This document shows positions 12,939 through 46,248 of a DNA stretch of 64,000 bases, piece by piece. Origin of the DNA: PVC group bacterium (lineage in GTDB: Bacteria > Auribacterota > Erginobacteria > Erginobacterales > Erginobacteraceae); the NCBI GenBank assembly GCA_040773245.1, contig JAXGWO010000004.1:4290-68289 (forward strand). The letters run 5' to 3'. The position numbers were made by a program, and so were the translations under genes. A model generated the notes under the pieces. That model saw only the letters and a program-made list of their open reading frames with translations. It ran no database searches and was not told the origin of the DNA. The number at the start of each line of letters is the position of its first letter. The stretch's first letter is position 1.

Positions 12939-13010
12939 GCGGGTGTAGCTCAATGGCAGAGCTCCAGCTTCCCAAGCTGGCTACGAGGGTTCGATTCCCT
13001 TCACCCGCTT
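12939..13010 (+). tRNA. tRNA-Gly (anticodon CCC).
   Basis: Cloverleaf folded by hand. Acceptor GCGGGTG/CACCCGC, D-stem GCTC/GAGC, anticodon stem CCAGC/GCTGG with loop TTCCCAA, T-arm GGTTCGATTCC. Confidence 0.8.
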
Positions 13011-30338: not shown

Positions 30339-31433
30339 CTACGGATGATTGGTCGAGTCAGGGTCTACAGAGCTGCAATTAATCCAATTATTTGTACAGC
30401 CGGTTGCATATGAACTTGAGACATACCAACACTCGTTGAAACCGCTTGCGGTAGTAGAGTTCCCATCTACTCGGCAGCTGCTCAGAAAGTCACACTGATA
30501 GAATCCATTTGTCGTACAGTTATAGGCATAACAGGAGGAAGTGTTGCTGCAAACCTGTAAGCCCGAGGTGGTGCAGCCACTCGCATAGCAGGAAGAGAGG
30601 TTGTGGCATCTGAGAAAGCCGTAGGAGCATCCGTCGGCCGAGCAGCCGACCAGGCGGGAGGTGAGGTTGGAATCCACGCCCCGAAAACCGGCGTTGGCGG
30701 CGGTCCGGACCACGCAGTTGACGAAGCTCACGAACTCGGCGTCGGCGGTGTAGTGGAATCCGGAGTAGAGGCTGTTCACCGAGCGGCAGTTCTGGAGTGT
30801 CGCGTACGAGTTGGTCAGGTAAACCGTCCCGATACTCGAAGCGGTGCTCCCGCCGCCGTCGAAACGCAGGTTCTCCAGGTGGCAGTTCGGCCCCGTGACC
30901 GCGAAGTAGTAACCGTCCGCCGAGAACTGGATGATCGAGGAGTTGCTCTCCCCGACCACGTGCTTGATGTTGATGGGGACAGTGATCACCTGGCTCACGG
31001 GGTAGGTCCCGGCGGGGATGAAGACGCTGTTGTAGGTGGTGTTCTGCAGCGCTGCCACCAGGTCGGCGCCGTCGTCGGCCTTCACCACGTAGTCGTAAAG
31101 CCGCTGGCCCCCGCCGCCGCCGGTCAGGGCGGTGTCTCCCGAACTCCCGAAGTAGATCCGACTCACCCCGCGGATCGTCCAGAGGCCGGTCGTCGGCCGG
31201 AAGACCCCGATCTCGGCGACACCGTCGCCGGTGTAGTCCCCGGCGGCGGGGGTGTCCCCGAAGGTGCCGAAGTAGACCCGGGTCAAACCCCGGACCACCC
31301 AGAGCCCGGTCGAGGGCCGGAAGACGGCGATGTCGTCCCGGGAGTCGCCGTCGAAGTCGGCGGCGGGCACCGGGCCGGTCCCGGCCAGCAGGACCAGGGC
31401 CAGTACGGCGATGATGGCGGTTATCGTCCTCAT
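30339..31433 (-). CDS. Secreted protein with duplicated FG-GAP-like N-terminal repeats and a Cys-rich parallel beta-helix-like C-terminal region.
   Basis: Signal peptide; two copies of VFRPxTGLWxxRGxxRxYFGxxGD; C-terminal repeats such as CYASGCTTSGLQVC and CYAYNCTTNGFYQC. Markedly lower GC than neighbours. Confidence 0.7.
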   Translation of the reverse strand: MRTITAIIAVLALVLLAGTGPVPAADFDGDSRDDIAVFRPSTGLWVVRGLTRVYFGTFGDTPAAGDYTGDGVAEIGVFRPTTGLWTIRGVSRIYFGSSGDTALTGGGGGQRLYDYVVKADDGADLVAALQNTTYNSVFIPAGTYPVSQVITVPINIKHVVGESNSSIIQFSADGYYFAVTGPNCHLENLRFDGGGSTASSIGTVYLTNSYATLQNCRSVNSLYSGFHYTADAEFVSFVNCVVRTAANAGFRGVDSNLTSRLVGCSADGCSYGFLRCHNLSSCYASGCTTSGLQVCSNTSSCYAYNCTTNGFYQCDFLSSCRVDGNSTTASGFNECWYVSSSYATGCTNNWINCSSVDPDSTNHP

Positions 31434-31517: not shown

Positions 31518-31649
31518 TCAGTTGCAGGAATGGCCGTGGCCCGGGAAGCCGCGGATGAAATCGTCGCCGTTGTATTCGTTGACGCGGGGCTGCACCCGGC
31601 CGGCGGCGAGAAGAAAGGGAATAACGACGGCAGCCAGTATCTGCATCAT
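31518..31649 (-). CDS. Small secreted peptide of 43 aa: signal peptide plus a Gly/His/Cys-containing tail.
   Basis: Strong RBS GGGAGGAGGGAAAT before the ATG. Hydrophobic N-terminus, then RVQPRVNEYNGDDFIRGFPGHGHSCN. Confidence 0.4.
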   Translation of the reverse strand: MMQILAAVVIPFLLAAGRVQPRVNEYNGDDFIRGFPGHGHSCN

Positions 31650-31738: not shown

Positions 31739-32872
31739 CTAGCAAAAATTCTGCAAGAATTTTTGGTAGATCCGGTACTTCTTGTAGAGGGTGCCGCCCA
31801 TCATCTCGGCGGCGCGGATGACCAGGAGGTTGTCCTCCAGCAGCCAGGAGATCTCGGAGTCGACGTAGCCGAGGTCGCGGGTGGTCCGGGCCGACTCCAG
31901 GTAGAGCATACCGTCCAGCCCCTTCCTCCGGTACTCCTCCTCGATCCCGGCCATCATCAGCCGGACGGCGTCAATTTTTTTCCGCCCGAGGAGGAAACGG
32001 ATGATCCCGAGCGGACCCATCCTCCCGTTCATCTTCCTGATCACCTGGTTGTAGTCGGGGAGGACCAGGTAGAAGCCGACCGGCTTCCCCCGGTACTCGG
32101 CGAAGAAGACCAGCTCGGGTACGACCAGGGGTTTGAGCTCCCTGGCCATCGCCGCGATCTCGGCCCCGGTGATGGGGACGAAACCCCAGTTCTCCGCCCA
32201 GGCCGAGTTGTAGATCTCCCGGACGAGCTTGAGCTCGTTGTGGAAGTCGTCCATCCGGATGTTCCGGATGGCCAGCCCCTTCTCCTGGAGGACGGCCGAG
32301 AGCCTCTCCAGCCGGGGGTTCATCTCCCTCGGCACCGGGATCCGGTAGGCGAGCAGGTCCTTGGCCTTTGCCAGTCCGGCGTCCGCCATCAGGCCGTGGT
32401 AGTAGGGAAGGTTGTAGGGCATCATAAAGCGGGGCGGGGAGTCGTAGCCCTCGAGGAGAAGCCCGCAGATCCCGTTGGTGGAGGGGTTGAGGGGACCGAT
32501 CATCCTCTCCAGTCCCCGGGACCGCAGCCAATCTTCGGCGGATTTGAAGAGGGCCCGGGCCGCTTCCCGGTCGTCGAAACACTCGAAGTAACCGAAGTAA
32601 CCGGTCTTCTCCCGGTGGTACTCTATGTAATCCCGGTCCGCGATCGCCGCGATCCGTCCCGCCGGTTTCCCATCGCGGAGGGCAAGGAAGAGCGCCCGCT
32701 CGGCGTGTTCCCAGAAGGGGTGGCGGCCGGGGGTGAGGGTCTTGCGGTCCTCCCGGAGCAAGGGAGGGACCCAGTGGGGATTTCCCCGGTAGACCGCCCA
32801 GGGAAAGGTGAGAAACCGCTTCCGGTCCCGGCGGGTGGTGACTTCTTTAACCTGGAGAACGGGGGTTCCCAT
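31739..32872 (-). CDS. BioF2-like/FemAB-like GNAT-superfamily N-acyltransferase; candidate lipid N-acyltransferase.
   Basis: 377 aa. The C-terminal acyltransferase fold resembles GNAT proteins found beside alpha-oxoamine synthases. Confidence 0.7.
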   Translation of the reverse strand: MGTPVLQVKEVTTRRDRKRFLTFPWAVYRGNPHWVPPLLREDRKTLTPGRHPFWEHAERALFLALRDGKPAGRIAAIADRDYIEYHREKTGYFGYFECFDDREAARALFKSAEDWLRSRGLERMIGPLNPSTNGICGLLLEGYDSPPRFMMPYNLPYYHGLMADAGLAKAKDLLAYRIPVPREMNPRLERLSAVLQEKGLAIRNIRMDDFHNELKLVREIYNSAWAENWGFVPITGAEIAAMARELKPLVVPELVFFAEYRGKPVGFYLVLPDYNQVIRKMNGRMGPLGIIRFLLGRKKIDAVRLMMAGIEEEYRRKGLDGMLYLESARTTRDLGYVDSEISWLLEDNLLVIRAAEMMGGTLYKKYRIYQKFLQNFC

Positions 32873-32915
32873 CCGGGGTATCCTGTCGCCGGTTGCCGCT
32901 CAAGGGGAGTTCGAT

Positions 32916-32990
32916 TGCGATAGCGATACCGATAGCGATCCCGACCGGTTGCCTCTGTCCTACTCCCCACTCCCCACTGCCCACTCCCTA
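32916..32990. repeat. Adjacent hexamer-family and heptamer-family arrays (composite locus).
   Basis: GCGATAGCGATACCGATAGCGATCCCGACC followed by CTGTCCTACTCCCCACTCCCCACTGCCCACTCCC, between the SPT-like and GNAT genes. Confidence 0.7.
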
Positions 32991-34181
32991 TATAATCCCC
33001 AGCTTCTTCCCCACCTTCGCGAAAGTCTCGAGGGCGAAGTCGAGCTGCTCGTCGGTGTGGGTGGCCATAAAGCTGGTCCGGATCAGGGTCTGCTCCGGGG
33101 GGACGGCCGGGGGGACGACCGGGTTGACGAAGATCCCGGCGTCGAAGAGGAGCTTGCGCATCAGGAAGGCCTTCTCCAGGTCGCCGATGAAGATGGGGAT
33201 GATCGGGGTCTCGCTATCACCCGTGTGGAACCCCGCGGCCTTGAAACCCTGGAGCATCTTGTGGGTGATGTCCCAGAGCCGGAAACGGCGCTCCGGTTCC
33301 CCCTCGACGATGTCGAGACAGGCCGTCACCGTCGCCACCGCCGACGGGGGGAGGCTGGCGGAGAAGATCAGGGACCGGGCGAAGTGCTTGAGGTAGTGGA
33401 TCACCGACTCGGTTCCGGCCACGCAGCCCCCGATCGAGGCCAGCGACTTGCTGAAGGTGATCATAATCAGGTCGACCTCGTCCTCGAGGCCGAAATGCTC
33501 GGCCGTTCCCCGCCCGGTCTTGCCCAGCACCCCGACCGAGTGGGCGTCGTCGACCAGGACCCGGGCGTTGTATTCCCGGGCCAGCTCGACGATCCGGGGG
33601 AGGGGGGCGATGTCCCCTTCCATACTGAAGATCCCGTCGATGACGATCAGCTTGCCGTTCTCCCCGCAGCGGGAGAGGACCCGCTCGAGATCGTCCATAT
33701 CGCCGTGGGTGAACTTCTTGATCTTGCCGAAAGAGAGCCTGGTGCCGTCGATGATGCTGGCGTGGTCGAGGCGGTCGATCAGGACGGTGTCGTTCTTGCC
33801 GACCAGGGCGGAGATCGCACCCAGGTTGGCCTGGAAGCCGGTGGAGAAGACCAGGGCCGCCTCTTTCCGGAAGAAGGCGGCCAGCCGTTCCTCCAGCTGC
33901 CGGTGGATGTCGAGGGTGCCGTTGAGGAAGCGGGAGCCGGCGCAACCGGTCCCGTACTTCTCCAGGGCGGCGATGGCCGCCTCCTTGACCTTCGGATGGC
34001 AGGTCAGCCCCAGGTAGCTGTTGGAGCCGAGCATCAGGATCTTCCGGCCCTCGATCATCACCTCGGTCTCCTGGGCCGAGGCGATCTCGGTGAAGTAGGG
34101 GTAGAGCCCCGCGGCCATAATTTCCCGGGCCCGGGTGAATTCGTCGCACTTGGTGAAGAGATCAGCCATTGAATTATTCAC
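32988..34181 (-). CDS. PLP-dependent alpha-oxoamine synthase, serine palmitoyltransferase / 8-amino-7-oxononanoate synthase family.
   Basis: PLP lysine in TFSKSLAS, glycine-rich GSNSYLGL and HS/DDAHS motifs. 397 aa. Confidence 0.85.
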
Positions 34182-34224
34182 TCCCTGTGAAGAGGTCTTT
34201 TCCCGGTTGCCCGGGCAACCGGGG

Positions 34225-35208
34225 TCAGAGCCAACCGGCCTCCCGGTACCATTCGATAGTCTTCCGCAGGCCTTCCGGAAGTTGGTAACGGGGGGAAAAT
34301 CCCAGTTCGGTCCGGGCCCGGGTTATGTCGCAAACCCAGTACTTATGGCTCATCTCCCGGACTTTGTCCAGATAAAATGCCGCCGGGGAGCGGGGGAGGA
34401 GCCCGGCCACGAACCGGATGGCCGCACTCCCGGCCGTCCAGGGCACCTTGAATCGGCCGGTCCGTTTCCCCAGGTTGTCGCGCAGCAGATCGAACGTGTC
34501 TTCCCAGGTGTAGACGTTCCCGTCGGCCAGGAAATAGGTGGCCGGCTCTTCCCCCGTCCTGGCCGCCGCCAGGAGAATCCCCTCGACAACGTCCCGGACG
34601 TGGACCGCGGAGAAGGTCGAGCCCCGGCCTCCCGGCTGGAATCTCCAGCCCCGGCCGGCCATCCGGATCAGCTGGAGGGTCTCCCGGTCTCCCGGCCCGT
34701 AAACGGCCGCCGGTCTCAGGATGGTTACCGCGAAACTGTCCCGGAAACGGCCGGCCTCCTCCTCCGCCGCCAGCTTGCTCTCCCCGTAAAGGCTGACCGG
34801 ATGGGGGGCTTCCTCCTCCCGCCGGGGACGGCCGTCGGGACTGGGGCCGGCGGCGGAGAGACTGGAGACGAAAATAAACCGTTTGACCTGGCGGGTTTCC
34901 CGGGCCGCTTCCAGGAGGTTCCCGGTCCCTTCGAGGTTGGCCGCCAGGAACTCCCTTCGGCTCCGCCCCCGGACGCGGCCCGCCAGGTGGAATACCGTGT
35001 CCATCCCCTCCAGGGCGTCCCGCAGGGAAGCCCGGTCCCCCAGCTCCCCGATCGCCACCTCCACGCCTTCCCGGGGGAGGCGTTCCCGGGAACTGGCCGC
35101 GCGGAGCAGGCAGCGGACCTGCCAGCCCCGGCTCCGGAGACTTCCGGCCAGATGGCTGCCGATAAACCCGCTGGCCCCCGTGATCAGGGCCAATTTTTCC
35201 TCGCCCAT
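34225..35208 (-). CDS. NAD-dependent epimerase/dehydratase-family (extended SDR) reductase.
   Basis: [12 protein letters not shown] Rossmann motif and YGESK catalytic dyad. 327 aa. Confidence 0.85.
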
Positions 35209-35379
35209 ATCGGTAACACCTCCGCCCGGCTGTCTGATTGCCGGGAGAATACGAAAGTAGTATAAAGACCGGTCCGGGGCAAGGCAAAAGGGGTTTGCCG
35301 TTATCCGGTCCGGGCGGGATTCTCTCTTGCCGCCGCCGGGGGGATGTAATATTGTCTTTCCGGGTGGCAGACTGCCTCT

Positions 35380-36021
35380 ATGAAGACGATCCTCCTGATC
35401 CTGCTGGCCGGCCTGGTCGGCCAGACCGAGTACATCGAGGTTTCCGGCGACCGCCTGGGCCGGGACCCGGCCCAGTACATCGGGGTCCCGATCAAGCTCA
35501 AGTGCCGGTTCCTCAAAGAGGACTCGACCTGGCTCAACGACGCCGACGTCCCCCGGCCCTCGGGCCGGTACGCGGGTTTCTTCGTCGAGGCCGAAAACCG
35601 GATCTTCGCCCAGCTCTTCTTCCCCCGGGAGCAGGCGGCCCAGCTGCAGAGATTTGAGCGGGGCGACCGGCTGATCATCTACGGGAAGGTCTTCAGCGCG
35701 CGGTTCAACTTTCCCTGGATCGACGTGGAGAAGATTACCGAGGGCTGGGTGATCGGCGAGGAACCGGAGCCGGTCCGGGAGGAGCGGGTCCGGGTGGCCA
35801 AGGAGTACGAGGACTTCGTCACCGCCCGCCGGCGGATCCTGGAGGAGCTGGAGCTGGACGATGTCCGGGATATCTACATCCGGCAGGAAGCGCTGATCAA
35901 GCTCCTGACCGAGAAGGGGATCTTCACCGCCGACGAGCTTGACCGGGAACTCCTGCTCCGGAAGGTCCGGCCGACCCCGGTCCCCTACATCGACCTGATC
36001 CTCGATCCGGAGAAGAGGTGA
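35380..36021 (+). CDS. Hypothetical protein with an N-terminal signal-like hydrophobic segment.
   Basis: 213-aa ORF with stop/start overlap to xdhC. No family recognised. Confidence 0.5.
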   Translation: MKTILLILLAGLVGQTEYIEVSGDRLGRDPAQYIGVPIKLKCRFLKEDSTWLNDADVPRPSGRYAGFFVEAENRIFAQLFFPREQAAQLQRFERGDRLIIYGKVFSARFNFPWIDVEKITEGWVIGEEPEPVREERVRVAKEYEDFVTARRRILEELELDDVRDIYIRQEALIKLLTEKGIFTADELDRELLLRKVRPTPVPYIDLILDPEKR

Positions 36022-39422: not shown

Positions 39423-39495
39423 GGGCGATTAGCTCAGCGGGAGAGCACCTGGATCACAACCAGGGGGTCACTGGTTCAATCCCAGTATCGCCCAT
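39423..39495 (+). tRNA. tRNA-Val (anticodon CAC).
   Basis: GGGCGATTAGCTCAGCGGGAGAGC D-arm, anticodon stem CCTGG/CCAGG with loop ATCACAA, T-arm GGTTCAATCC, acceptor GGGCGAT/ATCGCCC. Confidence 0.8.
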
Positions 39496-40283: not shown

Positions 40284-40688
40284 AACGGGGAGAGGTAGAT
40301 GGTCGCCTCCCGCCGCCGCCTTAAGGCGAAGGCGGGGGGAGGAAAGTCCGAACTCCGCAGGGCAGGGCGCCCCGAGAAGATCGGGGGCCCCGGGGGGGAG
40401 ACCCCCCGGGGACGGAAAGTGCCGCAGAAAACAGACCGCCGATGGTCCCGATCCCCGGATCGGGGCACAGGCAAGGGTGAAAAGGTGCGGTAAGAGCGCA
40501 CCGCCCGGCGCGTGAGCGCCGGGGCAGGGCAAACCCCGCCCGGAGCAAGGCCAAATAGGGGCCGAGGTGCTGCCCGCACCGTTCGAGGCCCGGGTAGGCC
40601 GCACTGAGCCCGAGGGCAACCGAGGGCCGAGATAGATGACCATCGCCCCTTAAAGGGGGACAGAATTCGGCTTATTCCTCTCCCCGTC
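40284..40688 (+). ncRNA. rnpB: RNase P RNA, bacterial type A.
   Basis: Universally conserved rnpB blocks are all present: GGAAAGTCCGAACTCC...CAGGGCAGG, GGAAAGTGCCGCAGAAAACAGACCGCC, GGTAAGAGCGCACC, GGGCAAACCCCGCCCGGAGCAAGGCCAAATAGGGG, AGATAGATGA and the P4 3' strand ACAGAATTCGGCTTA. P1 pairs ACGGGGAGAGG with CCTCTCCCCGT. Confidence 0.85.
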
Positions 40689-40709
40689 CTGCCGATCTTT
40701 TCCCTGCCG

Positions 40710-43042: not shown

Positions 43043-44755
43043 ATGCATGACGGAATTTATAAGAAAAGATCCCGGACCGTCTTCGGTGTATTTTTGATTT
43101 TTTCCTTCCTCCTCCTCACCCGGCTCTTCGGGCTCCAGTGCCTCCAGCATTCCCGCTACCGCCTCCAGGCCCGGGACCAGCAGCAGAGCACCCACTACCT
43201 CCCCCCCCGCCGCGGGGTGATCTATGACTGCCGGGGGAATATGCTGGCCGCCAGCATCCCCTCCTTCTCCCTCTACGCCGTCCCCCGCGAGGTCCCCCCC
43301 GAGCGGGTCGGCGAGATCGCGGAGCTCCTGGCCCCGGTGGTCGGGCAGGAGCCGGAGACCATCCGCGCCCGGCTCACCGGCGACCGGTGGTTCGCCTGGC
43401 TGAAACGCCACCTGGAGGATGCGGAGGTCGAACGGATCCGGCAGCTCGCCCTCCCCGGGATCGCGCTCCGGGAGGACCGGCGGCGGGTTTATCCGAAGGG
43501 GATCCTGCTCAGCCAGGTGCTGGGGTTCACCGATCCCGACGGCAACGGACTGGAGGGGCTGGAGGCGAAGTTCGACCGGCAGCTCAAGGGTAGGCCCGGC
43601 TGGCTGCTGACCGAGAGGGATGGTGCGCGGCGGGAGGTGACCTGGCACCGTTCCCACTCCCTCGATCCGATCGACGGCTGCAACATCCACCTGACGGTGG
43701 ACGAGGTCATCCAGTCGATCGCCGAGGAGGCGGTGGAAGGGGTCTATCACCGTTACGGGGCGGGCTGGGCCCTGGTCCTGGTGATGGAGCCGGCGACCGG
43801 AAAGATCCTGGCCCTGGCCAACCGCCCTACCTTCGACCCCAACTTCTACGCCCGCTCCACCGCCGAGCAGAGGCGCAACCGGGCGATCACCGACCCGATC
43901 GAGCCCGGCTCGACCTTCAAGGTCTTCCCCGCCGCCGCCGCCCTGGAAGCCGGGCTGGTCGCCCCCGAGACCGAGTTCTACTGCGAGGACGGAGCCTACT
44001 GGATCGGGGGACGGCTGCTGAGGGACAGCAGCCCTCACGGCATCCTCCGTTTCGAGGAGATACTACATAAATCCAGCAACATCGGGATGGCCAAGGTGGG
44101 GGCGATGATGGGGGCGGAGAAGCTCCACCGGTCCCTGGTCCGGTTCGGGATCGGGCGTTCCTACGGGTTTGAGCTTCCCGGCGAGTCGCCGGGGGTGCTC
44201 CGCCCCCCCCGGGAATGGTCCGCGCTCTCGCTGCGGTCCATCACGATGGGGCACGAGGTCTCGATGACCGCCCTCGGACTTCTCACCGCCTTCTCCGCCC
44301 TCGGCAACGGCGGGGTGCTGGTCCAGCCCCGGATCGTCGACCGGGTGGAGACCCCCGCCGGCGAGGTCATCCACCGCTACCCGGTGAAAGAACGGGGCCG
44401 GGTGGTCTCGGAGAGGACCGCCCGCCAGATGCTGGATATCCTGAGCCGGGTGGCGACCGAGGCCGGGACCGCGCGGCGGGCCGCCATCGAAGGTTTCACG
44501 GTGGCGGGGAAGACGGGGACCGCCCAGAAACTTTCCCCGGAGGGGGGGTATTCCCACGATCTTCACCGGGCGCTGTTTATGGGGCTGATCCCGGCCGAAC
44601 GGCCGCAGCTGGCGATCTTGGTGGTGGTCGACGAGCCGCGTCCGGAGTATTACGGTGGGGTGGTGGCGGCCCCCGTCTTCCGGGAAGTCGGGGAGAGGAT
44701 CATCCGCTACCTGGACCTGGCCGCGGCTTCGGCGGACCGGGGGGCCCGATCGTGA
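43043..44755 (+). CDS. ftsI: Penicillin-binding protein transpeptidase FtsI (PBP3).
   Basis: N-terminal TM helix, dimerisation domain, STFK (GSTFKVF), SSN and KTGT motifs. Confidence 0.9.
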   Translation: MHDGIYKKRSRTVFGVFLIFSFLLLTRLFGLQCLQHSRYRLQARDQQQSTHYLPPRRGVIYDCRGNMLAASIPSFSLYAVPREVPPERVGEIAELLAPVVGQEPETIRARLTGDRWFAWLKRHLEDAEVERIRQLALPGIALREDRRRVYPKGILLSQVLGFTDPDGNGLEGLEAKFDRQLKGRPGWLLTERDGARREVTWHRSHSLDPIDGCNIHLTVDEVIQSIAEEAVEGVYHRYGAGWALVLVMEPATGKILALANRPTFDPNFYARSTAEQRRNRAITDPIEPGSTFKVFPAAAALEAGLVAPETEFYCEDGAYWIGGRLLRDSSPHGILRFEEILHKSSNIGMAKVGAMMGAEKLHRSLVRFGIGRSYGFELPGESPGVLRPPREWSALSLRSITMGHEVSMTALGLLTAFSALGNGGVLVQPRIVDRVETPAGEVIHRYPVKERGRVVSERTARQMLDILSRVATEAGTARRAAIEGFTVAGKTGTAQKLSPEGGYSHDLHRALFMGLIPAERPQLAILVVVDEPRPEYYGGVVAAPVFREVGERIIRYLDLAAASADRGARS

Positions 44756-46248
44756 AACTGGCCCGGCTGATCAAGGATCTGGAGCCGGTCGAAACCCGGG
44801 GCAATCTCGGGGTCGAGGTGACCGGTCTCGCCGCCGACTCCCGGCGGGTCTCTCCGGGCGATCTCTTCGTCGCCGTCCCCGGCGCCCGCCGCAACGGGCT
44901 GGAGTTCCTCTTTGAGGCCCGCGACCGGGGCGCGGTGGGGGTGGTGGCGGCCGAGTTCCCTTCCGCCGCCAACGGCAACCTGGTTCAGGTGAAGGTGGAG
45001 GACCCCCGCCGGGCCCTGGGCCTGCTGGCCAACCGGTTCTTCGACTACCCGGCCGCCGGCCTGAAACTGATCGGGGTGACCGGGACCAACGGCAAGACCA
45101 CCGTCTCCATCCTCGCCCGGGCGGTGCTGGAGGAGGCCGGGATACCGACCGGTCTGCTGGGCACCATCTACTACGGGATCGGCCAGCGGCAGATCCCCTC
45201 CAGCCTGACCACGCCGGAACCTCCCCGCCTCCAGGAACTCCTGGCGGAGATGAAGCGGGCGGAGGTCACCCACGCCATTCTCGAGGTCTCCTCCCACGCC
45301 GTCGCCCAGGAACGGCTGGCCGGGATCGAGTTCTCCACCGGTGTCTTCACCAACCTCTCCCGGGAACACCTGGATTTCCACCGGACGATCGACGAGTACC
45401 GGGCCGCCAAGCTCCGGTTCTTCTCCTCCCTCCACCGGGGTTCCCCGGCCCCGGAGGAGAAGACGGTGATCGTCAACATCGACGATCCCCTGTCGGAGAA
45501 GATTCTCCACCGTCTCCCGGTCCCGGCGGTCACCTACGGCTTCTCCCCCCGGGCCGACCTCGCCGCCTCCCGGCTGGCCCCGACCCGGACCGGCACCCGG
45601 TTCACGGTCCGCTGGCGGGACGGACTCATCCCGGTCCGGATAAATCTGCCCGGCCGGCACAACGTCCTCAACGCCCTGGCGGTCTTCGCCCTGGGGCGGA
45701 GCGAGGGGGTCGCCCCGGAGGCGATCGCGCGGACCCTGGAGAATCACCCGGGGATACCCGGCCGCCTGGAACGGGTCGAGACCGGGCGGGGCTTCGATCT
45801 CTTCGTCGATTACGCCCACACCCCGGACGGCCTGGAGAACGTTCTCCCGGCTCTCCGCCGCCTGTACAGGAAGCGGTTGATCCTGGTCTTCGGCTGCGGA
45901 GGGGACCGCGACCCCGGGAAGCGTCCCCTGATGGGGAAGGCGGCCGCCCGCTGGGCGGACCGAGTCATCATCACCTCGGACAACCCGCGCTCGGAAAACC
46001 CCGGCGGGATCATCGCGCAGATCAAGGCCGGGATCCCCCGGGGGTCGCGGGGGGTGAAGGCGATCGAGGACCGGAGGGAGGCGATCGCCGAGGCCTGCCG
46101 GACGGCCCGGCCCGGCGACGCCGTCCTGATCGCCGGGAAGGGGCACGAGCGGGAGCAGATCTTCGCCGACCGGGTCATCCCCTTCGACGACCGGGAGGCC
46201 GTTCGGAAGATCCTGGCCGAACTGCCGAAGAAATATGCCGGGAAGTGA
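44752..46248 (+). CDS. murE: UDP-N-acetylmuramoyl-L-alanyl-D-glutamate--2,6-diaminopimelate ligase.
   Basis: Mur ligase domains, GVTGTNGKTT P-loop. The GTG start overlaps ftsI's stop; track ORF 44215-46248 has a spurious 5' extension. Confidence 0.9.
   Translation: MKLARLIKDLEPVETRGNLGVEVTGLAADSRRVSPGDLFVAVPGARRNGLEFLFEARDRGAVGVVAAEFPSAANGNLVQVKVEDPRRALGLLANRFFDYPAAGLKLIGVTGTNGKTTVSILARAVLEEAGIPTGLLGTIYYGIGQRQIPSSLTTPEPPRLQELLAEMKRAEVTHAILEVSSHAVAQERLAGIEFSTGVFTNLSREHLDFHRTIDEYRAAKLRFFSSLHRGSPAPEEKTVIVNIDDPLSEKILHRLPVPAVTYGFSPRADLAASRLAPTRTGTRFTVRWRDGLIPVRINLPGRHNVLNALAVFALGRSEGVAPEAIARTLENHPGIPGRLERVETGRGFDLFVDYAHTPDGLENVLPALRRLYRKRLILVFGCGGDRDPGKRPLMGKAAARWADRVIITSDNPRSENPGGIIAQIKAGIPRGSRGVKAIEDRREAIAEACRTARPGDAVLIAGKGHEREQIFADRVIPFDDREAVRKILAELPKKYAGK

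Follow-up and report, generated by a model that had tools for sequence, protein, structure and literature searches.

Gene sets that combine a serine palmitoyltransferase (Spt), a bacterial ceramide synthase (bCerS) and the ceramide reductase CerR have already been reported from 38-40 phyla (PMC11334938). In Caulobacter crescentus the pathway genes are those for Spt (CC_1162/CCNA_01220), bCerS (CC_1154/CCNA_01212) and CerR (CC_1164/CCNA_01222), with CC_1154 and CC_1162-1165 shown to be genetically necessary for dihydroceramide (PMC9386255, PMC11324152). The clusters of Sphingomonas and E. coli (cerR-acp-spt, lptF/lptG, yghO) have been equated with these Caulobacter genes (PMC9386255, PMC11324152), E. 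coli YghO being the orthologue of CC_1154 (PMC9386255). The CerR of Caulobacter has been reported to be periplasmic and associated with the inner membrane (PMC11087976), and within the Bacteroidota spt, bcerS and cerR are reported to be unclustered (PMC11334938).

A further set of such genes is found in a 64-kb stretch of DNA (the window, 64,000 nucleotides) from an uncultured PVC-group bacterium that is related to Candidatus Auribacterota. The first-pass annotation had proposed three co-oriented genes on the minus strand at 31739-35208 and this arrangement is borne out, with open reading frames for an extended SDR (327 aa, 34225-35208), an alpha-oxoamine synthase (AOS, 32988-34169) and a tandem-GNAT acyltransferase (31739-32872) that has the expected 377 aa. 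Pfam places Epimerase and 3Beta_HSD on the SDR, Aminotran_1_2 on the AOS and, weakly, Acetyltransf_1 on the GNAT. The AOS had been described as a protein of 397 aa with a TFSKS lysine motif; the motif is there, whilst the length of 397 aa is only obtained from a GTG at 34181, and an ATG at 34169 that gives 393 aa is the more likely start because GGGAG lies 12 nt before it and the public gene call also begins there. Elsewhere in the window, the open reading frame at 44215-46248 is probably not a real gene and has no recorded genomic context.

The three genes, here named cerR, spt and bcerS, probably form one transcription unit. A consensus scan, which is a pattern match only, gives a Sigma-70-like promoter candidate (TTGCCT-17-TATACT, 35259-35287, minus strand) some 50 nt before the SDR gene begins, and no terminator pattern was found in the spacers between the three genes. 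The SDR-Spt spacer of 55 nt holds a GC-rich hairpin on the minus strand with a perfect 9-bp stem (34202-34223, MFE -25.7 kcal/mol, z -2.2), this hairpin is without a U tract and is possibly an mRNA stability element. The Spt-bCerS spacer is longer, at 115 nt, and a scan of its sequence finds micro-tandem arrays, CGATAG repeated 4.7 times and ACTCCCC repeated 3.9 times (32912-32988, no strand assigned). An FG-GAP gene and a 42-aa open reading frame downstream were considered as parts of the operon and dropped, being found in two and none, respectively, of five relatives.

The AOS is predicted to be a serine palmitoyltransferase of the Bacteroidota/Sphingobacterium (delta-proteobacterial) type. 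It carries Pfam Aminotran_1_2 (5e-57), and the best NCBIfam model is NF047600 (SerpalmtaseCFB), 175 bits ahead of TIGR01825, KBL and BioF, with the KBL and BioF models at 404 and 402 bits being about 190 below the Spt model. The best PDB match is the Spt of S. multivorum, at 470 bits and 57% identity over the whole protein, compared with 312 bits for a KBL/BioF-type enzyme. When aligned to 8GUH, the residues N52, G80, S81, F83, H138, S185, D210, H213, T241, S243, K244, A274 and R367 are all Spt-like; these include the PLP lysine K244 of TFSKS, T241, the triad His138/Asp210/His213 and the substrate-site residues Asn52, Gly80, Ser81, Ser243 and Arg367, which are identical in S. multivorum Spt (the roles of the residues follow PMC10196870 and PMC9304779). 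Positions 243 and 274 are glycine and asparagine in Kbl and glycine and threonine in BioF, whereas the AOS has S243 and A274. A neighbour-joining tree (385 columns, 100 bootstraps), in which Kbl and BioF were the only outgroups and SulA/CapB, CqsA and HemA were left out, splits Kbl and BioF from the rest with 99% bootstrap and gives 100% to a group that holds the AOS and S. multivorum Spt. A KBL or BioF identity is rejected on the profile scores, on residues 243 and 274 and on the tree, and the membership of the Spt family that the first-pass annotation had suggested, with a comparison against KBL and BioF as its check, is upheld by the NCBIfam and PDB scores and by both splits of the tree.

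Spt is not the only AOS that begins a lipid pathway of this form. Were this a sulfonolipid (capnine) pathway, the AOS would act as a cysteate acyltransferase (SulA/CapB), with the SDR as dehydrocapnine reductase and the GNAT as N-acylase, and the first-pass annotation had regarded a capnine-like product as a comparable alternative. The capnine route follows the same three-step logic with overlapping enzyme families (PMC9304779), and cysteate acyltransferases are among the PDB matches of the AOS, although these score 237-261 bits against the 470 of Spt. The position of SulA Lys281, which has been proposed as a marker of SulA versus Spt (PMC9304779), is taken in the AOS by an alanine (A274), as it is in Spt, and a cysteate synthase was not noticed among the Pfam-annotated neighbours. 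From the alanine and the lower PDB scores capnine is disfavoured and must be considered very improbable.

The same chemistry could also be used with another amino acid or for another product, for example with alanine to make a 1-deoxy-ceramide, or for some other N-acylated amino-ketone lipid. It is known that S. multivorum Spt also accepts alanine and glycine, if with low efficiency (PMC10196870), and that anoxic waters are rich in 1-deoxyceramides which have been attributed to anaerobic bacteria with Spt-like genes (PMC11334938). The score of the AOS against NF047600, at 594.8 bits, is also slightly below the curated equivalog cut-off of 640. Against this, at 57% identity the serine and PLP contacts are the same as those of S. 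multivorum Spt with the sole exception of Met271, a main-chain contact which is replaced by isoleucine, and another amino acid or product is thus thought improbable, with serine remaining the expected substrate.

The GNAT is predicted to be a bCerS of the YghO/CC_1154 family, as homology, shared invariant residues, an AlphaFold fold and the linkage to Spt all suggest. The references used for comparison are the E. coli yghO cluster and loci of Sphingomonas, Roseomonas and Streptomyces, all from a plasmid collection, which are tied to the Caulobacter locus tags through published work (PMC9386255, PMC11324152). The protein is 35% identical to E. coli YghO over 375 aa (E 2e-69) and, again as a full-length match, 33% identical to the bCerS of Sphingomonas (E 1e-76), the gene of which lies beside lptF/lptG, with identities of 44% and 42% to the homologues of Streptomyces and Roseomonas. 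Every one of the four references retains 25 of the 42 family-invariant positions in the GNAT, the same 25 throughout, and the motifs HWVPPL, GRIxA, NxAWxxNWGFxP, LPDxN and SWxLExN are common to the GNAT and the bCerS references. The bCerS class that had been put forward for this gene is therefore well matched by full-length homologues. As a member of this family the protein would be expected to use a fatty acyl thioester for the N-acylation of 3-KDS or of the sphingoid base.

The further label of the first-pass annotation, a "BioF2-like" acyltransferase, does not hold, and neither does a FemAB-type identity. PF13480 has no match on the GNAT in Pfam and is found on only 1 of 120 among the homologues listed. 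The AlphaFold model (pLDDT 92.5) has a two-GNAT-domain fold, for which Foldseek finds MshD and clavulanate ORF-type tandem GNATs as the closest folds (E 1e-12 to 1e-14, TM 0.56-0.63), with FemX and FemA far behind these CoA-dependent enzymes in 27th and 36th place (TM 0.36-0.39). The FemAB identity is rejected on Pfam and the fold search together. The solved tandem GNATs, which are the mycothiol synthase MshD, the clavulanate-pathway protein 2WPW, the glucosamine N-acetyltransferase 5KF1 and MAB_4324, share the fold of the window GNAT with a sequence identity of just 12-16%. These solved enzymes carry out acetyl transfer to small polar amines, and to our knowledge no bCerS structure has been solved. 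Within NCBIfam no family is matched by the window GNAT or by three reference bCerS proteins, and no curated model for bCerS or CerR was found there.

The SDR appears to be CerR-like, an NDUFA9-like extended SDR that in ceramide synthesis would reduce the 3-keto group at the expense of NAD(P)H, as the first-pass annotation had supposed of its class. It carries Pfam Epimerase (2.7e-37) and over its full length is 30% identical to the protein in the CerR position in Sphingomonas, 29.5% to the epimerase of the E. coli cluster and 37% to the SDR of the Streptomyces operon, with E values of 1e-28 to 1e-36 in tblastn and of 7e-33 to 8e-55 in pairwise BLASTP. Against these references it scores 107-130 bits, compared with 41 or fewer for the other SDRs of the 64-kb window. 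The motifs TGxxGxxG, YxxxK, VYGPGD and a C-terminal HxxW are common to it and the references. In the SDR the first of them reads TGASGFIG (residues 10-17) and the catalytic YxxxK reads Y-G-E-S-K, both of which align with the references, and the SDR and the reference CerR proteins share an identical sub-threshold NCBIfam profile. The N-terminus runs directly into the Rossmann motif, without a signal-peptide-like segment; since the reference proteins begin likewise, the location of the SDR in the cell is left undecided by the sequence alone.

It might be supposed that the synthase is a housekeeping enzyme of the KBL/BioF type, the SDR a sugar-nucleotide epimerase and the GNAT a generic acetyltransferase, and that the three have come to lie together by chance and share no common pathway. 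The automatic annotations are indeed generic ("aminotransferase class I/II", "NAD-dependent epimerase/dehydratase", "GNAT N-acetyltransferase") and the genes that flank the trio are housekeeping genes. Against such a chance adjacency are the distance of the AOS from KBL and BioF in profile score and at residues 243 and 274, the match of all three proteins to experimentally defined sphingolipid clusters and the recurrence of the trio as a module in many phyla. Out of 74 informative loci from about ten phyla, 54 have spt immediately upstream of the GNAT gene and on its strand, and in 39 of these 54 a CerR-like SDR is adjacent. The taxa include WOR-3, Ignavibacteria, Calditrichota, Brocadiaceae, Elusimicrobia, Actinomycetota and Bacteroidota, the last with the cultured Rufibacter roseolus, and the Spt-bCerS spacers in other loci are often only 3-10 nt or the reading frames overlap. 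Five related PVC-group MAGs keep the three-gene order together with conserved flanks, and among the 80 loci retrieved the co-directional order SDR-Spt-GNAT is found only in these five relatives. Because the homologues of all three open reading frames are highly significant and the AOS and GNAT genes are neighbours so often, they are taken to be real genes that are linked other than by chance, and an accidental grouping is considered most unlikely. Membership of the GNAT family alone is not proof of substrate, as in 16 loci no Spt was found within 10 kb of the GNAT.

A tblastn search of the 64-kb window (E<=1e-3) found no dedicated ACP or acyl-ACP synthetase, with the ACPs of E. coli and Sphingomonas and the E. 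coli fatty acyl-AMP ligase as queries, and at the same threshold found no LptF2/G2, DAG-kinase-like protein or CDP-alcohol transferase. At the scope of the window the trio does not seem to be a rhodobacterial, AcpR/AasR-dependent Spt system. As the Spt is of the Bacteroidota/delta type and the window holds neither AcpR nor AasR, acyl-CoA or a housekeeping acyl-ACP is the likely acyl donor.

It is very probable that cerR-spt-bcerS provides for dihydroceramide, the backbone of bacterial sphingolipids, with the substrates and the lipid product deduced from the likeness to known enzymes. Spt, with PLP held on the TFSKS lysine, would join L-serine to a long-chain acyl thioester, releasing CO2, and so give 3-ketodihydrosphingosine. 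The tandem-GNAT bCerS would then add a second fatty acyl thioester to the amine, which gives an oxidised ceramide, and the extended-SDR CerR would use NAD(P)H to reduce the 3-keto group. This order, acylation before reduction, is modelled on Caulobacter; the alternative, eukaryote-like order of reduction before acylation would lead to an identical product. The first-pass annotation's reading of a ceramide-like lipid pathway is thus in agreement with the Spt, bCerS and CerR references for all three proteins.

A more unusual version of the pathway may be imagined, in which all three enzymes are cytoplasmic and the ceramide is finished inside the cell, with a topology or order unlike that of Caulobacter. 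This is suggested by a CerR without an export signal and by the lack of Lpt paralogues, AcpR and AasR nearby. The product might even be an unusual 1-deoxy or sulfur-bearing ceramide with a role in the outer membrane of an anaerobic PVC lineage, like those that have been seen in euxinic waters. This version is regarded as rather unlikely and the dihydroceramide pathway set out above is preferred.

The trio had been thought an unusual find in this lineage, it is less so than assumed given the 38-40 phyla from which such gene sets are known (PMC11334938). Auribacterota are not named in the main text or supplement of that study outside its large data tables, where a listing is possible. The operon is a clear but ordinary further example of a published pathway, and the current picture is unchanged, as both the pathway and its broad phylogenetic spread have already been published. 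What it does add is an Auribacterota-like PVC lineage, a candidate phylum with no cultured representative, to the probable bacterial sphingolipid producers, and a compact operon of three genes that stands by itself and would lend itself well to the heterologous reconstitution of a Bacteroidota-type pathway without AcpR or AasR.

Compared with the systems of Caulobacter, E. coli B and Sphingomonas (spt, yghO, epi), the window trio has the same three enzyme families with the same signature motifs, and compared with the orthologues of E. coli and Sphingomonas its GNAT is 33-35% identical, its SDR about 30% and its Spt 39-43%. It differs in being a single co-directional operon, whereas the Caulobacter-type genes are spread over several operons, and in having no AcpR, AasR, LptF2/G2 or head-group genes nearby. 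The window SDR shows no export signal, whilst the CerR of Caulobacter is reported as periplasmic (PMC11087976), and the window Spt belongs to the Bacteroidota/delta subgroup, whilst those of Caulobacter, E. coli and Sphingomonas belong to the other. Within its own subgroup it is like the Spt of S. multivorum (PDB 3A2B, 8GUH), a soluble homodimer-type AOS of about 395 aa with the same PLP-, serine- and carboxylate-binding residues. Despite the unclustered genes reported for the Bacteroidota, Rufibacter roseolus nonetheless carries Spt-GNAT-SDR. Ding et al. (2024, PMC11334938) describe the same co-localisation of a Spt-like AOS with bCerS and CerR in MAGs of 38 phyla from the Black Sea, and the hosts of these gene sets, which are uncultured, largely anaerobic and include PVC phyla, are of a like type to the bacterium from which the window comes.

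The operon at 31739-35208 very probably encodes ceramide synthesis by Spt, bCerS and CerR, the remaining doubt lying with the substrate and product, which are predicted. The three consecutive minus-strand ORFs described in the first-pass annotation are borne out by reading frames and Pfam families: an SDR (34225-35208, 327 aa; Epimerase/3Beta_HSD/NAD_binding families), an alpha-oxoamine synthase (AOS; 32988-34181; Aminotran_1_2, 5e-57) and a GNAT protein (31739-32872, 377 aa) with a weak Acetyltransf_1 match in its N-terminal half. The AOS does carry the TFSKS lysine motif, and the length of 397 aa attributed to it holds for an ORF counted from GTG, but the start is most likely the ATG at 34169 (393 aa), which has GGGAG 12 nt 5' of the codon and is the start used by public gene calls on identical contigs. 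The label 'BioF2-like' (PF13480) is not applicable to the GNAT of the window.

A pattern match to a sigma-70-like site (TTGCCT-17-TATACT, 35287-35259, minus strand) lies ~50 nt 5' of the SDR gene, whose start is served by a GGAGG ribosome-binding site. The 55 nt SDR-Spt spacer holds a perfect 9-bp, GC-rich hairpin without a U tract (34202-34223, minus strand; z -2.2), and the 115 nt Spt-bCerS spacer two micro-tandem arrays (CGATAG x4.7 and ACTCCCC x3.9, 32912-32988). No terminator-like pattern was found in the spacers of the trio; the only such matches fall within the genes for the SDR and Spt, one on the opposite strand, and their number is below chance expectation. We infer that the trio is co-transcribed.

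In NCBIfam the AOS scores highest with NF047600, the 'serine palmitoyltransferase' model of Cytophaga-Flavobacterium-Bacteroides type; its 594.8 bits fall below the curated cut-off of 640 but lead TIGR01825 by 175 bits and the KBL (404) and BioF (402) models by ~190. Its best PDB matches are the Sphingobacterium multivorum Spt structures 8GUH and 3A2B (470 bits), followed by a Thermus-type KBL/BioF enzyme (312), Sphingomonas Spt (~295-300) and E. coli KBL (270), with the cysteate acyltransferases at 237-261 bits. Aligned to 8GUH with few gaps (57% identity), and with residue roles taken from PMC10196870 for S. multivorum Spt and PMC9304779 for SulA, the AOS retains Asn52, Gly80, Ser81, Phe83, His138, Ser185, Asp210, His213, Thr241, Ser243, Lys244 and Arg367. 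Position 274 is Ala, where the equivalent in the sulfonolipid enzyme SulA is the diagnostic Lys281; positions 243/274 are Gly/Asn in E. coli Kbl and Gly/Thr in BioF. Neighbour joining on 385 columns (100 bootstraps), with only Kbl and BioF as outgroups, splits these two from all Spt-like sequences with 99% support and places the AOS in a 100% group with S. multivorum Spt and GNAT-linked synthases of many phyla, leaving Kbl, BioF, rhodobacterial Spt and the Streptomyces homologue outside. Profiles, residues and tree thus put the AOS on the Spt side, and clustering with BioF or KBL is clearly not what was found, though outgroups were few; by its sequence the AOS is a predicted Spt.

The GNAT has at least 1,791 relatives in the protein search, mostly unnamed or 'GNAT family N-acetyltransferase' among the matches listed. 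NCBIfam has no model that is matched by it or by the reference bCerS proteins, and the links to references come from tblastn of annotated plasmid and chromid records. It is 44% identical to a Streptomyces GNAT inside a Spt-GNAT-epimerase operon and 41% to a Roseomonas gene that has LptF/LptG paralogues and a nucleotidyltransferase on either side, with DAG-kinase-like and CDP-alcohol transferase genes near. The match to a Sphingomonas parapaucimobilis N-acetyltransferase runs end to end (33%, E 1e-76), in a region that also contains NAD(P)H-binding protein-ACP-Spt and lptF-lptG, and E. coli YghO (35%) is encoded divergently from fatty-acyl-AMP ligase-epimerase-ACP-Spt and adjoins lptG/lptF paralogues. 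Orthologues required for dihydroceramide have been listed as 'aca: CC_1154, yghO ECD_02850, Swit_3908...' and 'epi: CC_1164, ECD_02852...' (PMC9386255), and CC_1154 and CC_1164 are named cerS and cerR (PMC11324152), which makes the reference proteins of this comparison literature-defined orthologues of the Caulobacter enzymes. An alignment of 50 window-type homologues has 42 invariant positions; all four references keep 25 of these, the motifs HWVPPL, GRIxA, NxAWxxNWGFxP, LPDxN and SWxLExN included. The AlphaFold2 model has two GNAT domains (mean pLDDT 92.5, pTM 0.90), and among solved folds it comes closest to tandem GNATs, namely the clavulanate-pathway protein 2WPW, glucosamine N-acetyltransferase 5KF1, MAB_4324 and MshD; FemX/FemA are much more distant, which argues against a FemAB relation. 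The proposed kinship with bCerS is upheld by full-length homology to the YghO/CC_1154 family (33-44% identity), and the GNAT is, as judged by homology, a putative bCerS/YghO-family protein.

The SDR can be aligned from end to end with the cluster reductases of Streptomyces (37% identity, E 8e-55), Sphingomonas (30%, E 7e-33) and E. coli (29.5%), in agreement with the CerR assignment first suggested, and shares with them TGxxGxxG, YxxxK, RPxxVYGPGDxE and a C-terminal HxxW. Two further SDR-like ORFs in the window score just 32-41 bits against the CerR references. The sub-threshold NCBIfam pattern is alike in the SDR and three references, with HpnA, OleD and SdmB within the top four of each. By these comparisons the SDR is CerR-like. 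Caulobacter CerR is periplasmic by report, whereas the window SDR begins directly with the nucleotide-binding motif, as do the reference proteins.

Linkage was followed in 80 retrieved genome loci with GNAT relatives, 6 of which had too little upstream flank. In 54 of the 74 informative loci a Spt-like AOS lies directly upstream of the GNAT on the same strand, at spacings from overlapping reading frames up to 232 nt. A CerR-like SDR is divergent and just upstream of spt in 33 of these 54 (Ignavibacteria, Melioribacteraceae, Calditrichota, Brocadiaceae and others), the SDR-Spt-GNAT order of the window occurs in five, all PVC-group relatives, and Rufibacter roseolus has Spt-GNAT-SDR. In 16 loci from Aminicenantes, Anaerolineae/Chloroflexia, Verrucomicrobiia and 'Eubacteriales' MAGs (L043, L045, L048-L050, L054, L058, L060, L062, L069-L072, L074, L076, L080 and similar) the GNAT has no Spt-like gene within 10 kb; there the pathway genes may be unlinked, as in some lineages (PMC11334938), with which these loci agree, or the GNAT may act on another amine substrate.

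In E. coli PN43 (locus L088, 3528-9125) the sphingolipid-type segment comprises spt, an acyl carrier protein, epimerase/CerR, fatty acyl-AMP ligase and divergent yghO; of 5426 complete E. coli genomes, 4068 contain at least 80% of it, and the RefSeq name of the AOS is now 'spt'. The Spt-bCerS-CerR operon of a Streptomyces sp. NBC_01001 linear plasmid (L085, 5766-10292) has overlapping start/stop codons and is followed by a condensation-domain protein, an arrangement suggestive of additional acylation or tailoring in that actinomycete. On Roseomonas mucosa plasmid p1-AD2 (L087, 1805-10916) the bCerS homologue is mis-annotated 'dATP pyrophosphohydrolase' and neighbours LptF/LptG paralogues, a sterol-desaturase-family protein, a nucleotidyltransferase, a DAG-kinase-family protein and a CDP-alcohol phosphatidyltransferase, a layout resembling the Caulobacter ceramide-phosphoglycerate gene region.

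Within the 64-kb window, tblastn gave no match to references for AcpR, AasR (fatty acyl-AMP ligase), LptF2/G2, DAG-kinase-like ceramide kinase, CDP-alcohol transferase, nucleotidyltransferase, desaturase or the Streptomyces condensation-domain protein. These absences are consistent with the Bacteroidota/delta-type Spt subgroup, whose members have no tie to AcpR/AasR (PMC9386255); acyl-CoA or housekeeping acyl-ACP are candidate acyl donors. The evidence best supports the published bacterial ceramide route. Spt would condense a long-chain acyl thioester with serine, yielding 3-ketodihydrosphingosine, bCerS would N-acylate this, and dihydroceramide would arise when CerR reduces the 3-keto group; these steps follow the sequence put forward for Caulobacter (PMC11087976). 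A eukaryote-like reaction order may apply instead (PMC11324152, PMC9278070).

The operon has a GC content of 0.62-0.66, inside the range of the window, and is flanked on one side by plus-strand housekeeping genes (purC, uppP/bacA, glmM, a sigma-70 factor, PPDK) and on the other, also on the plus strand, by a signal-peptide protein without Pfam match, XdhC, a MobA-like protein and RNase J. The entire neighbourhood is syntenic across five related MAGs, so the operon is a stable part of the clade's chromosomes and not an island. The gene at 35380-36021 (plus strand), divergent from the operon, encodes a 213-aa protein whose N-terminus is signal-like and which matches no Pfam family; it keeps its position in these MAG loci (L005-L009; 67-85% identity). 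Between bCerS and an FG-GAP gene lies a 42-aa minus-strand ORF (MQILAAVVIPFLLAAG...HGHSCN, 31518-31646) that has a GGAGG-type ribosome-binding site; public assemblies include it in their gene calls, but tblastn gives no match for it across the five loci. The secreted FG-GAP protein (30339-31433, minus strand) combines its repeats with a signal peptide and a Cys-, Ser- and Thr-rich right-handed beta-helix region; its gene, downstream of bCerS on the same strand, is found in only two of the five loci (L008, L009) and so probably stands outside the lipid operon. Rfam scans place class A bacterial RNase P RNA at 40286-40690 (233.5 bits) and tRNA genes at 12939-13009 and 39423-39494, all on the plus strand.

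Several Logan metagenome assemblies contain the locus in identical form, and among the matches listed the closest genome records for the GNAT are 'PVC group bacterium' MAGs (75-84% identity), then Candidatus Aureabacteria and Ca. Euphemobacter frigidus (~70%), Euphemobacter belonging to Ca. Auribacterota of the PVC group. The three-enzyme pathway rests on genetics and biochemistry in Caulobacter, and homologous gene sets were reported first from nine phyla and later, in Black Sea MAGs, from 38, Planctomycetota and Verrucomicrobiota included (PMC11334938). Auribacterota are not named in the parts of the text and supplement of that paper that we consulted, nor are sphingolipids mentioned in one genomic study of Auribacterota, so that the lineage may be a new host of a known ceramide pathway. 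The system itself is already known, and its gene order is a minor variation here.
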